Virus record (IMG/VR): IMGVR_UViG_2681813261_000015
DNA: 5,567 nucleotides
Direction: 5' to 3' (one strand)
Origin: a virus
Taxonomy: Duplodnaviria; Heunggongvirae; Uroviricota; Caudoviricetes
Shown here: piece by piece, positions 2,190 through 5,542 of the stretch
Position numbering within the stretch: position 1 is the first letter of the stretch
Layout of the letters: each line of letters starts with the position of its first letter
Notes under the pieces: generated by a model
Seen by the model: the letters and a program-made list of their open reading frames with translations, nothing else
Databases searched by the model: none
What the model was told of the DNA's origin: nothing
Translations under genes and position numbers: made by a program

Positions 2190-3248
2190 ATGCTTAATAC
2201 TGTAAAAATATCCAGTTGTGAGTTAATCAACGCCGACTGCCTGGAATTTATCCGGTCGTTACCCGAAAATTCTGTTGACCTGATAGTCACGGACCCGCCG
2301 TACTTTAAAGTGAAGCCTGAGGGCTGGGATAACCAGTGGAAGGGCGACGATGATTACCTGAAGTGGCTGGACCAGTGTCTGGCGCAGTTCTGGCGGGTGC
2401 TGAAACCTGCCGGAAGTCTTTACCTGTTCTGTGGTCATCGCCTGGCATCTGATATCGAAATCATGATGCGTGAACGCTTCAGTGTGCTGAACCATATTAT
2501 CTGGGCGAAGCCGTCCGGACGCTGGAACGGATGCAACAAGGAAAGCCTGCGGGCGTATTTCCCCGCCACAGAGCGCATTCTGTTCGCGGAACATTATCAG
2601 GGGCCGTATCGTCCGAAAGATGCCGGGTATGCGGCGAAGGGCAGTGCACTGAAACAGCATGTGATGGCCCCGCTGATTTCTTACTTTCGTGATGCGCGAG
2701 CTGCCCTGGGGATAACGGCAAAACAGATTGCAGATGCCACAGGAAAGAAAAACATGGTGTCGCACTGGTTCAGTGCCGGTCAGTGGCAGTTGCCGAATGA
2801 AAGCGATTATCTGAAATTACAGGCGCTGTTTGCCCGGGTGGCAGAAGAGAAGCATCGGCGTGGTGAACTGGAAAAGCTCCACCACCAGCTGGTGGATACG
2901 TATACCTCACTGAACCGGCAGTATGCGGAGCTGCTGAGTGAATATAAACATCTGCGGCGGTATTTTGGCGTGACGGTGCAGGTGCCGTATACCGATGTGT
3001 GGACGCATAAACCGGTGCAGTTCTATCCCGGGAAACATCCGTGCGAAAAACCGGCAGAAATGCTGCAGCAGATAATCAGCGCTAGCAGTCGTCCGGGTGA
3101 CCTGATTGCAGATTTTTTCATGGGGTTGGGTTCGACAGTGAAAGCGGCACTGGCGCTCGGGCGTCGTGCAATTGGCGTTGAGCTGGAGACTGAACGTTTT
3201 GAGCAGACGGTTCGGGAAGTACAGGATTTAGTCAGCCAGAACGGATGA
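2190..3248 (+). CDS. DNA methyltransferase, beta-class (N6-adenine/N4-cytosine family; DPPY motif suggests N6-adenine)
   Basis: 352-aa product with catalytic motif IV (VTDPPYF) near the N-terminus and AdoMet motif I (DFFMGLGST) near the C-terminus, i.e. the circularly permuted beta-class order. A ~150-aa central insert contains an HTH-like segment (ITAKQIADATGK) and is probably the target-recognition domain. No restriction endonuclease gene is adjacent. Confidence 0.88.
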   Translation: MLNTVKISSCELINADCLEFIRSLPENSVDLIVTDPPYFKVKPEGWDNQWKGDDDYLKWLDQCLAQFWRVLKPAGSLYLFCGHRLASDIEIMMRERFSVLNHIIWAKPSGRWNGCNKESLRAYFPATERILFAEHYQGPYRPKDAGYAAKGSALKQHVMAPLISYFRDARAALGITAKQIADATGKKNMVSHWFSAGQWQLPNESDYLKLQALFARVAEEKHRRGELEKLHHQLVDTYTSLNRQYAELLSEYKHLRRYFGVTVQVPYTDVWTHKPVQFYPGKHPCEKPAEMLQQIISASSRPGDLIADFFMGLGSTVKAALALGRRAIGVELETERFEQTVREVQDLVSQNG

Positions 3249-3288: not shown

Positions 3289-3364
3289 GGCCCTTTAGCT
3301 CAGTGGTGAGAGCGAGCGACTCATAATCGCCAGGTCGCTGGTTCAAATCCAGCAAGGGCCACCA
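3289..3364 (+). tRNA. ileZ: tRNA-Ile2 (anticodon CAU, ileX/ileZ-like; formally Met by anticodon)
   Basis: Hand-folded cloverleaf: acceptor GGCCCTT/AAGGGCC, D-stem GCTC/GAGC, anticodon loop CTCATAA, T-arm GCTGG-TTCAAAT-CCAGC, encoded CCA. Near-identical in layout to E. coli tRNA-Ile2 as recalled. Symbol assigned from the Q-tRNA gene order known from Stx phages. Confidence 0.85.
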
Positions 3365-3371
3365 TCACATA

Positions 3372-3448
3372 CCGCCATTAGCTCATCAGGAAAGAGCGCC
3401 AGCCTTCGAAGCTGGCTGCGCGGGGTTCAAGTCCCCGATGGCGGTCCA
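3372..3448 (+). tRNA. argN: tRNA-Arg (anticodon UCG)
   Basis: Hand-folded cloverleaf: acceptor CCGCCAT/ATGGCGG, D-stem GCTC/GAGC, anticodon stem CCAGC/GCTGG with loop CTTCGAA, T-arm CGGGG-TTCAAGT-CCCCG, encoded CCA. Symbol assigned by gene order only. Confidence 0.8.
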
Positions 3449-3461
3449 TTATCTGCATCAT

Positions 3462-3538
3462 GCGTTGTTAGCTCAGCCGGACAGAGCAATTGCCTTCTAA
3501 GCAATCGGTCACTGGTTCGAATCCAGTACAGCGCGCCA
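3462..3538 (+). tRNA. argO: tRNA-Arg (anticodon UCU, decodes rare AGA)
   Basis: Hand-folded cloverleaf: acceptor GCGTTGT/ACAGCGC (one G-U pair), D-stem GCTC/GAGC, anticodon stem ATTGC/GCAAT with loop CTTCTAA, T-arm ACTGG-TTCGAAT-CCAGT, encoded CCA. Symbol assigned by gene order only. Confidence 0.8.
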
Positions 3539-3648: not shown

Positions 3649-4002
3649 TTGATTGAGTGTTTGTTATACGGTCTAATGGTTTTTTCAGCATTAAATATTT
3701 ATCATTCATATGGTGTGGGTAGAGTGAATATTGATGAGGCGTCGGGGTGTTTCATCCTTAGGCAGCGTATTGATATAGTCAATGCAGCACGAGCAAAGGC
3801 CTTCAGCCGTTTGACAGTTTTGTTCTGTACTCCTGATCGTCTTTCGGGAAGAGACGTTATTATTCTGAATAGTGATGCTATACAGAGGGTTTGCGATGAG
3901 TTCATGGTTGCTAATTCAGAATTATTTGCTCTTGTTCAGGAGTACAACAGAATAGCCAGGACCTGTGGTATGGATGAACTTCGGATTACTCATCTGGGGT
4001 AG
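3649..4002 (+). CDS. orphan hypothetical protein in AT-rich cargo DNA (start uncertain)
   Basis: 117-aa ORF whose first codon is TTG at 3649; first in-frame ATG is at 3676. No convincing SD at either. The region is visibly AT-rich compared with the flanking phage genes. No domain recognised. Confidence 0.35.
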   Translation: MIECLLYGLMVFSALNIYHSYGVGRVNIDEASGCFILRQRIDIVNAARAKAFSRLTVLFCTPDRLSGRDVIILNSDAIQRVCDEFMVANSELFALVQEYNRIARTCGMDELRITHLG

Positions 4003-4322
4003 ATACATATCTGGATTATCACCTGTTACGGTAAAAAGTGATTGCTTACTGTTTTTGTGAATGGCATTGCAGCAGCCGGATAATGTCAGTGCTGGCTGAC
4101 GGTGTGCTGGTGGCGGGTGTGGTGGTTGTTGCTTTCCCGTTGCTGAAAAAGAAAACGCCAGACTGTTAGCCGGGTATCAGTTAGCGGGAGAAATTTTTAA
4201 ATACTTCACAATTCAGGCGGTTGACTGTTGTCTGGTTTGCGGGGAGTTTGTTAAAAGAAACTGGCATGGTGAATCCCCCTGTGCGGAGGGGCAATCAGCG
4301 AGTAGGTATATGGGATAATCGC

Positions 4323-4420
4323 GGATTCAGGTGCTGGTACTGAATTCACCGGGAGGCACCCGGCATCATGCAATGGCACATAGCGCCACTCTCCAGCCCT
4401 CTCCGGAGGGGCTTTTCTGT
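4323..4420 (+). ncRNA. candidate small structured RNA, unit A of a tandem paralogous array
   Basis: Hairpin 1 at 4323-4347 (8-bp stem with one G-U, 9-nt loop); hairpin 2 at 4349-4363 (CCGGG/CCCGG); terminator stem-loop CCCTC-TCCG-GAGGG at 4397-4410 followed by CTTTTCTGT. An extended -10-like element TGgGATAAT (4311-4319) would place the transcript start near 4326. No ORF of 60 aa or more overlaps. Confidence 0.35.
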
Positions 4421-4547
4421 GCCGGATACATCACAGTTTCTGGAACCTTAGGTACTACAGTATCAGTCAGGGTGCTATATTTTCAGATGTGATGAAAGCC
4501 TGTCAGCAGGCAGGGCGTATCGGAAATGACCCAGTAGAGAAAACGTT

Positions 4548-4635
4548 GACTCAGATACCGGTGCTGAGTTACCGGGAAACCGGCATCACATGACCGCTAT
4601 CCTTCCAGGCCCATCCGCTCCGGTGGGCCTTTTTA
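4548..4635 (+). ncRNA. candidate small structured RNA, unit B (paralogue of unit A)
   Basis: Hairpin 1' at 4548-4570 (7-bp stem, 9-nt loop); hairpin 2' CCGG-GAAA-CCGG at 4572-4583 (GNRA tetraloop); strong terminator GGCCCA...TGGGCC at 4608-4629 followed by TTTTTACTG. The arms align with unit A and show one compensatory base-pair change (T-A in A, C-G in B). No clear promoter upstream. Confidence 0.35.
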
Positions 4636-4676
4636 CTGCAGAAAACAGGTTCCCCGTTAAATGCTATGTTGCTCAC

Positions 4677-4757
4677 AATTCAGNNNNNNNNNNNNNNNNN
4701 NNNNNNNNNNNNNNNNNNNNCCCTCTCCGGAGGGGCTGTTTATATTGATTTTGTCAG
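4677..4757 (+). ncRNA. candidate unit C of the same array, core masked by N-run
   Basis: Starts with AATTCAG (4677-4683), the same left arm as hairpin 1 of unit A. It is preceded by an extended -10-like TGcTATGTT (4662-4670). After the Ns comes CCCTCTCCGGAGGGGC (4721-4736), identical to the unit A terminator hairpin, followed by a T-rich tail. Confidence 0.25.
4684..4720. other. run of 37 ambiguous bases (N); masked or unresolved sequence
   Basis: Literal n characters in the input. Falls inside the repeat array, consistent with an assembly gap or collapse caused by the repeats. Confidence 0.95.
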
Positions 4758-4769
4758 ATGTGAGTAAAC

Positions 4770-4803
4770 TCCTTATGGACTTTGTTGTTTTAGTCCATAA
4801 GGA
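4770..4803. repeat. perfect 12-bp inverted repeat with 10-nt loop at the 3' end of the minus-strand ORF
   Basis: TCCTTATGGACT (4770-4781), loop TTGTTGTTTT, AGTCCATAAGGA (4792-4803). All 12 pairs are Watson-Crick. Overlaps the stop codon (TAA, complement of 4773-4775) of ORF 4773..5108. Confidence 0.5.
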
Positions 4804-5108
4804 CATATTTGCAGAGTGCAACGGTTATTAAAGCATTCATTCAATACGTTATCTGTATTTGTAGGGCATTCCTGGCTATTTTTGATTGAATTCCAGAATG
4901 TTTTATTGAATGGTACTACGTTGTAAATGGTTACAGGTAGCACTTTGTTATTGAGCATGATGCCTGTGTGAGTCAGTGTAAATATACTTTCAGGAGGTAA
5001 GAAAGCATCCGATTGATACCAGATTATTAATTTTATTTTACTCCATATGACTGAAAAAGATATTCCGCATGATGGCTGGATAACTGTATCAATCACAATC
5101 CACTTCAT
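4773..5108 (-). CDS. orphan hypothetical protein in AT-rich cargo DNA
   Basis: 111-aa ORF with ATG start (complement of 5106-5108) and a good SD, AAGGAA, 5 nt upstream on the minus strand (complement of 5114-5119). AT-rich codon usage. Convergent with the upstream cargo. No domain recognised. Confidence 0.4.
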
Positions 5109-5353
5109 TTAGTTTCCTTGTTTATGCCTTGCTGGTGATGTTCTGAAAAGTATAAATGATATTTTTGAATGTAAACCATAGAGCAGAATTATTTTTCTGA
5201 TGTTGTTTATTGTTTATTTAAATGCAGGGTGGTTTATATCTCGTCTTGTAGTTTATCCATGCATATCTGCTTGATAATCAGGTTTTTATTTAAGGTATGG
5301 TTTTGTGTTTTTTCTGTATTACATGTCAGGTATTTTAAAGAATTATTTTTCAG

Positions 5354-5542
5354 ATGGTGGAAAGAACCATGGCATTTAAACACTATGATGTTGTCAGGGC
5401 GGCGCCGCCGTCAGATCTTGCGGAAAAGCTGACACATAAACTGAAAGAGGGCTGGCAGCCGTTTGGTAGTCCGGTGGCCATAACCCCTTATACCCTGAGG
5501 TGTACTGGCAATAGCGGACACTACCATTTGTTCTTTTTTTAA
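5354..5542 (+). CDS. small conserved lambdoid late-region protein that typically precedes the lysis cassette (DUF1737-like, from memory)
   Basis: ORF with ATG at 5354; a more likely start is the in-frame ATG at 5369, with GGTGG 8 nt upstream. The motif ...KHYDVVRAAPPSDLAEKLTHKLKEGWQPFGSPVA... matches a small protein I recall immediately upstream of holin genes in E. coli lambdoid prophages. The C-terminus looks atypical. Confidence 0.65.
   Translation: MVERTMAFKHYDVVRAAPPSDLAEKLTHKLKEGWQPFGSPVAITPYTLRCTGNSGHYHLFFF

Follow-up and report, generated by a model that had tools for sequence, protein, structure and literature searches.

The best described relative of the locus analysed here is iraL of the uropathogenic E. 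coli strain CFT073, whose product has 58.9% amino acid identity to IraM of E. coli K-12 and whose gene lies in a differing genetic context (Hryckowian et al. 2014, PMC4045071); its locus tag, c1429, derives from a later paper. Deletion of iraL lowers log-phase RpoS in both CFT073 and Shigella sonnei and shortens the half-life of RpoS from about 5 to about 2.5 min, with stability being restored by iraL under its native promoter, while a plasmid carrying iraL raises log-phase RpoS also in K-12 (PMC4045071). The protein is expressed in log-phase CFT073, His-IraL and CBP-RssB co-purify, and two-hybrid analysis indicates that IraL binds only RssB's N-terminal domain (PMC4045071). The iraL mRNA increases upon shift to 37 °C (PMC12890032), and IraL levels are higher in the absence of Fur (PMC7157518). 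Membership of the iraL subtype has been defined as at least 95% identity to CFT073 iraL across the coding region, and the promoter with its upstream region is at least 96% identical among iraL carriers (PMC4045071).

The paralogous IraM of K-12 (YcgW/ElbA, b1160) differs from IraL in being induced by Mg2+ starvation and in contacting both domains of RssB rather than the N-terminal domain only. In the structure of the IraM-RssB complex, the residues of cluster I (I4, I6, W22, K26, and I42) cover the receiver domain's α4-β5-α5 face, to which RpoS is expected to bind, while contacts with the C-terminal domain and the helical linker are made by clusters II and III (PMC10844676). Two other proteins deserve consideration. 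RssC, an IraL/IraM-like anti-adaptor that is 47-49% identical to iraM and iraL (gene ClustalW), is present only in Salmonella and is likened to IraL by the description of the same paper (PMC4045071). PmrD, the connector protein of polymyxin resistance, is the only other solved protein having the IraM fold and binds the receiver domain of a response regulator too (PMC10844676), but it targets PmrA instead of RssB and is devoid of the Cys-rich tail typical of the IraM family.

The window, which is the whole stretch of 5,567 nucleotides that we have analysed from a virus of the Caudoviricetes (IMG/VR record IMGVR_UViG_2681813261_000015), contains on its minus strand a frame of 111 codons plus stop running from an ATG at 5108 down to 4773 (4773..5108, -). 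The ORF listing and direct reading of the sequence returned the same limits and translation that had been implied by the first-pass annotation, a reading of the letters without database searches. Its remark that this gene is oriented opposite to every other one is equally sound, for all other identified genes of the window lie on the plus strand, as is its mention of AT-rich DNA, the GC content being 0.31-0.35 across the gene and its upstream region versus about 0.5 in the window's left part. The same annotation called the frame an orphan with no recognisable domain, and both descriptions have to be abandoned. The protein matches the curated NCBIfam model NF007393, 'anti-adapter protein IraM', scoring 162 bits where 121 are required (E 4.7e-48) and aligning its residues 1-110 to positions 1-113/114 of the model, aligns by phmmer with the solved structure PDB 8twd, 'Anti-adapter protein IraM', over residues 1-78 (E 6.3e-31), and matches PHROG 4407 (E 3e-72), which is still listed in PHROGs as of 'unknown function'. 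RefSeq, too, labels the locus 'anti-adapter protein IraM', and does so in over 1,400 complete genomes of E. coli.

Comparison with the described systems leads us to conclude, with high confidence, that the minus-strand ORF is iraL, the prophage-borne paralogue of iraM encoding an RssB anti-adaptor that stabilises RpoS, and that it forms a self-contained antisense cassette in a cargo slot of lambdoid prophages, such as those harboured by E. coli and Shigella. The protein shares 110 of 111 residues (99%) with CFT073 IraL, the sole difference being S74 in the window in place of L74, and the coding region differs at 2 of its 336 nucleotides, well within the definition of the subtype given above; DNA identity along the CFT073 locus is 99.3%. 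The likeness to CFT073 extends to a near-identical promoter, leader, and Shine-Dalgarno sequence and to the same position and orientation between Q with its tRNAs on one side and the DUF1737 and holin genes on the other. The differences concern the surroundings: between Q and iraL, the prophage of the window has a DNA methyltransferase, orf117, and one more STnc100-like unit as additional cargo, and the IS200 of CFT073 is absent from it. The family model, the interface residues, the coding identity, and the promoter region all place the sequence in the IraM family and in the iraL subtype, and we have found no evidence contradicting this identification. The identity and function of iraL are already known, having been characterised in 2014, and the window adds no new biology.

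Since the curated names in RefSeq and NCBIfam both read IraM, it has to be considered whether the ORF might be iraM proper, namely the PhoP-activated gene whose product protects RpoS when Mg2+ is scarce, and not iraL, its log-phase paralogue. The window protein and K-12 IraM do share family, length class, probably a PmrD-like core, the five residues contacting RssB's N-terminal domain, and four cysteines in the tail. Moreover, a weak lead to PhoP control as in iraM comes from a PhoP-box-like sequence, TGTTTATTGTTTATTTA (5204-5220, +), which precedes the -35 hexamer of the ORF by about 30 nt, has one mismatch to the pattern KGTTTA-N5-KGTTTA, and is kept in 92 of 94 loci. This match is not significant, however, because at least one such site arises in 31 of 200 shuffled sequences, and the whole intergenic region around it is conserved anyway. 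Against iraM proper stands also the level of identity, which is 61% with K-12 IraM (65 of 107 residues) versus 99% with CFT073 IraL. BLASTN similarity to the K-12 iraM locus begins at the ATG (query position 121), while the upstream DNA cannot be aligned, and the genomic positions differ: the Q-lysis slot of a lambdoid prophage here, the site beside the e14 remnant and ycgX in K-12. We thus consider it very improbable that the window contains iraM proper, and retain its identification as iraL.

The regulatory region of iraL has features that can be compared directly with those mapped in CFT073. The first-pass annotation had proposed a -35 element TTTACA (5170..5175, -) separated by a 15-nt spacer from a -10 element TATACT (5149..5154, -), and both hexamers and their spacing are exactly where it placed them. 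By 5' RACE, the iraL mRNA of CFT073 starts with ACATCACCAGCAAGGCATAAACAAGGAAAC..., given in full as 5'-ACATCACCAGCAAGGCATAAACAAGGAAACCA (PMC4045071), and this string is found on the minus strand of the window from position 5141, one base differing near its end. The start so located follows TATACT by 7 nt, which shows the proposed promoter to be correct, and it defines a 5' leader of 33 nt (5109..5141, -). This leader has one base different from that of CFT073 and agrees in length with the '+33' end of the fragment that was cloned as promoter for complementation in PMC4045071. The Shine-Dalgarno sequence AAGGAA, read directly at 5114..5119 (-), is followed by the 5-nt spacer ACTAA and then the ATG, as had been claimed, and is invariant in 94 of 94 loci, as is the -10 hexamer. 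The -35 hexamer is instead TTTACA in 74 loci, TTTATA in 9, and affected by a 1-nt deletion in 11; these variants echo the second iraL copy of strain JJ1886, in which the -35 is a point mutant (PMC4045071). Both hexamers are the same in the window as in CFT073, and only 2 bases differ within the 120 nt upstream of the ATG. The AT-rich intergenic region between the divergent iraL and DUF1737 genes (5109..5353, 245 nt), which holds these elements, has a mean identity of 98.4% over the 94 loci; together with the RACE start at 5141 and the hexamers of CFT073, this places the region within the range described for iraL-type promoters. A generic σ70 scan did not list the TTTACA/TATACT pair because it accepts only spacers of 16-18 nt, the 15-nt spacer of iraL being suboptimal.

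The 94 loci just mentioned all contain the whole cassette and come from complete genomes, deposited phage records, IMG/VR contigs, and public assemblies carrying the exact protein, a sample that is biased to close relatives, with the best 80 viral matches kept. They bear upon the possibility that the ORF is a chance, non-coding frame in AT-rich DNA, in which promoter-like hexamers are easily generated (GC 0.33) and the generic scan indeed finds no more promoter-like sites than in shuffled sequences. Among the grounds for dismissing the gene, the first-pass annotation had named the absence of homologues with a conserved frame and disruption of the frame in relatives; the frame is intact in 94 of the 94 loci, which encode four protein variants. 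Among these loci, biased as they are to close relatives, there are 13 segregating changes, 10 of which are synonymous at third positions and 3 non-synonymous, corresponding to a pN/pS of about 0.08. Hence, iraL is under purifying selection. Given also the match to a curated family, the solved structure of a homologue, and the published transcript, protein, and phenotype of iraL (PMC4045071), the probability of a chance ORF is practically negligible.

The family encompassing IraM and IraL is small. At 90% identity it resolves into 20 clusters, all the named ones being from Escherichia, and the distance between the iraL and iraM groups is now spanned by intermediates of 65-75% identity, while E. 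albertii carries a copy that is 99% identical. The genome of a Citrobacter sp. (L020, 6001-6330) encodes an intact member of 109 aa with 54% identity, which lies outside any prophage between genes that we judged by eye, from their translations, to be of the histidine-acid-phosphatase-like and outer-membrane-protein-like types; this intact member therefore extends the family past Escherichia, Shigella, and Salmonella. Another candidate relative, with 32% identity in E. coli ECGI0523 (L021, 6001-6318), was rejected as a family member, for it contains no intact ORF; lying between ycgX/bluR and mcrA, it is probably a degraded iraM locus of the K-12 type.

For the ORF and for K-12 IraM, a scan with the local Pfam library returned only a sub-threshold match to Nairovirus_NSm, but the impression of a missing domain depends on the version of the library. 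Its model PF11183.13 is a PmrD-only model that gives 159 bits to a PmrD sequence and misses both the window protein and K-12 IraM at a limit as loose as E<=10; in precomputed annotations, all members of the family bear the label PF11183.15 (PmrD). The latter label raises the question of whether the ORF could encode a PmrD-like connector, whose partner would be the receiver domain of some regulator besides RssB, such as the response regulator PmrA, the phosphorylation of which it would alter. Structurally, IraM superposes on PmrD at about 1 Å r.m.s.d. and both proteins raise the net phosphorylation of their partners (PMC10844676). However, direct binding to RssB and stabilisation of RpoS have been demonstrated for IraL (PMC4045071), and the failure of the PmrD-only model to recognise either the window protein or K-12 IraM indicates that the sequence relationship is remote. 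A connector of this kind is consequently a very improbable reading.

As an anti-adaptor, the protein of the window would act in the following way. The lysogen would transcribe iraL leftwards from its own σ70 promoter (TTTACA and TATACT, with start at 5141), independently of Q. The product, predicted to consist of a PmrD-like β-barrel core followed by a Cys-rich tail, would bind the N-terminal receiver domain of RssB; once bound, RssB would not deliver RpoS to ClpXP, and the consequent stabilisation of RpoS would keep the general stress regulon partly switched on during exponential growth. All five residues of cluster I (I4, I6, W22, K26, and I42) are identical in the window protein, whereas cluster II is identical at 3 of 5 positions (T13S, L75I) and cluster III at 2 of 4 (H63N, I64V), P66 being kept. 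From its sequence, this pattern of a retained cluster I with altered clusters II and III would fit the binding to the N-terminal domain only. The single substitution with respect to CFT073, S74, adjoins the interface residue 75, at a position where both CFT073 and K-12 have L74; we infer that the S74 copy probably acts like IraL of CFT073. For the IraM family, the expected fold of residues 1-78 is a PmrD-like antiparallel β-barrel with a β-hairpin and a single α-helix. An AlphaFold2 model built on a 16-sequence alignment shows seven strands and, after them, a helix (69-76), but it is weak (mean pLDDT 59.9), and in Foldseek searches the only significant PDB match of this weak model is 8twd_A (E 7e-6), with a TM of just 0.37/0.46. 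Because the model is weak, the agreement on the fold mostly depends on the alignment of the primary structures.

The C-terminal tail of the protein (residues 81-111, 4776-4868, -) contains the motif E-C-P-x9-C-x4-C-x4-C-P-Y-G, the four cysteines of which, C81, C92, C97, and C102, do not vary among 16 members of the family, whose identity to the query ranges over 53-97%; the Citrobacter relative has them too. In IraM, this tail was cut off for crystallography and has been called less conserved and flexible, and the full-length protein was reported to be unstable or insoluble (PMC10844676); the words 'zinc' and 'cysteine' are absent from the text of that structure paper. The Cys-rich tail, strictly conserved in the family, could be a metal or redox site.

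Downstream of iraL, 32 nt past its stop codon, there is a GC-rich hairpin, CCCTCTCCGGAGGGGCT, followed by a T-rich run (4721..4740, +), which emerged from terminator scans, from a repeat family (D1), and from alignments. The full hairpin, CAGCCCCTCTCCGGAGGGGCTG, is visible when the window is aligned with CFT073, phage 640R1, and the carrier of the exact allele L008, and the homology of the window to loci of the CFT073 type stops at this hairpin and its T-rich run on the plus strand. The hairpin terminates an STnc100-like unit on the plus strand and likely marks the 3' boundary of the iraL cassette. Two such sRNA units stand in tandem to the left (4235..4636) and are convergent with iraL: unit 1 (4235-4424, +) matches Rfam RF02076 with 122.5 bits, above gathering, and unit 2 (4463-4636, +) with 30.1 bits, below gathering. 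Both finish with an intrinsic terminator on the plus strand, formed by a hairpin of the CCCTCTCCGGAGGGGCT type, and the terminator scan finds a terminator-like site at 4607-4630. The number of these units varies among related prophages and their hairpins coincide with breakpoints of the mosaic. STnc100 has been related to the prophage sRNA PasD in a 2026 preprint, which mentions neither iraL nor iraM.

The left arm of the boundary hairpin is covered in the window by a run of 37 N (4684-4720) lying directly 3' of the iraL cassette, which also conceals the downstream junction. In CFT073, phage 640R1, and L008, a complete STnc100-like unit of about 185 nt stands in the place of the N-run, while in most loci having the gene order of the window, position 4416 is joined straight to 4721. 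E. coli 2D shares the left flank of the window and then continues into a NanS-type esterase, with no iraL. The flank of this strain and the direct joins of 4416 to 4721 therefore locate the N-run at a repeat or at a joint of the mosaic, where either masking or a gap in the assembly of a repeat could account for it.

The arrangement at the 3' end invites a more elaborate interpretation of iraL, as a possible switch of lysogenic conversion that is coupled to the prophage's state. During lysogeny, its own promoter would keep the RpoS of the host partly stabilised, and the stacked plus-strand terminators of STnc100 type that abut the 3' end of iraL would shield the gene against convergent transcription; upon induction, Q-modified polymerase would read through these terminators and run antisense across iraL, which would thereby be turned off. 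In addition, C81, C92, C97, and C102 could form a metal or redox site tuning the stability of the anti-adaptor. We regard this combination of prophage-state switch and tail site as unlikely.

The cassette occupies a well-defined place in the prophage genome. On the plus strand, the window encodes RusA (425-799), the Q antiterminator (796-1617), and three tRNAs, Met/Arg/Arg (3289-3538), with the DUF1737 gene (5354-5542) on the other side of iraL. The order RusA, Q, optionally the methyltransferase, optionally orf117, iraL on the opposite strand, DUF1737, optionally a NanS-type esterase, holin, and lysozyme is found in 93 of the 94 loci. CFT073 has this same layout within a lambdoid prophage containing replication, hokD, Q, lysis, terminase, and portal genes, and so does the deposited phage record vB_EcoS-640R1 around iraL. 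The closest locus overall, IMG/VR contig L083, is 98-99.7% identical, but the order of its segments differs.

Other small passengers accompany iraL in this part of the window. An N6/N4 DNA methyltransferase of 352 aa with an HTH-like insert (2190-3248, +; Pfam PF01555, E 8e-42) and a winged-helix-like ORF of 65 aa (1842-2039, +; PHROG 331) are cargo between Q and the tRNAs that only some related prophages possess. The AT-rich orf117 (3649-4002, +; 117 aa), directly after the tRNAs, occurs in roughly every second locus with iraL; it matches PHROG 2873, of unknown function (E 4e-70), and nothing in Pfam or NCBIfam. The following ORF of 43 aa (4038-4169, +) matches PHROG 1470, 'TciB-like inhibition of cell division or resistance to colicin' (E 8e-13), and is annotated as a DUF3927 family protein in relatives, constituting another small cargo gene of the same slot.

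In Shiga-toxin phages, the slot after Q and the tRNAs is occupied by stx. As autonomous cargo cassettes in the same position, the stxAB genes and the nanS-p esterases are the morons most comparable to iraL, bor and lom of lambda being general examples of the class; related prophages have a NanS-type esterase in the slot either instead of iraL or alongside it. The difference lies in expression, for Q-dependent late transcription runs in the direction of stx and nanS-p and drives them, whereas iraL is antisense to it and has its own promoter of constitutive type. Being bounded by the hairpin on one side and the DUF1737 gene on the other, iraL is a discrete cassette and hence a moron in the classical sense, with its own mapped promoter, a hairpin boundary, a slot conserved in 93 of the 94 loci, presence or absence among relatives, and a GC content of 0.33 versus about 0.5. 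The first-pass annotation had suggested a moron expressed in lysogeny, having a fitness or exclusion function. The class it proposed agrees with the σ70 promoter of the gene, its log-phase expression in CFT073, and its effect on RpoS stability; for exclusion we have found no support.

The latter point bears upon the possibility that the selected role of iraL is centred on the phage, the rise in RpoS stabilising lysogeny or lowering spontaneous induction, or the protein excluding other phages, with any benefit to the host as a side effect. Lambdoid phages do bring the gene along, always in one slot for cargo and opposed to late transcription, and relatives of IraL are encoded by 292 viral contigs of IMG/VR; the biochemical mechanism would be the same as in the explanation that we prefer. 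However, neither the data nor the literature that we examined link IraL to induction frequency or exclusion, and iraL is kept in prophage remnants riddled with IS elements, which cut the DUF1737 gene and the flanks, where no phage can benefit from it. This retention therefore points to selection at the level of the host, and makes a phage-centred role unlikely as the reason why the anti-adaptor is maintained.

The distribution of the locus is wide. A DNA search recovered it at a coverage of at least 80% in 1,427 of 5,426 complete E. coli genomes, in every one under the IraM label, and among public assemblies 4,016 indexed blocks contain the exact protein with S74. One carrier of this exact protein is HE616528.1, which we take to be Shigella sonnei 53G. 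The site of iraL has been named only as the 'potB genomic island' (PMC4045071). We have found no description of iraL as cargo of lambdoid phages in the literature that pairs it with the term 'prophage', nor did any turn up in a limited search of the literature for IraM together with 'lambdoid'. The missing description is a gap of presentation, not a discovery. It is nonetheless worth stating that iraL is phage cargo in a fixed slot, carried by deposited phage genomes and hundreds of viral contigs. In biological terms, IraL helps to explain the high levels of RpoS during growth in many pathogenic E. coli and Shigella, and thereby affects their stress resistance and adaptation to the niche.
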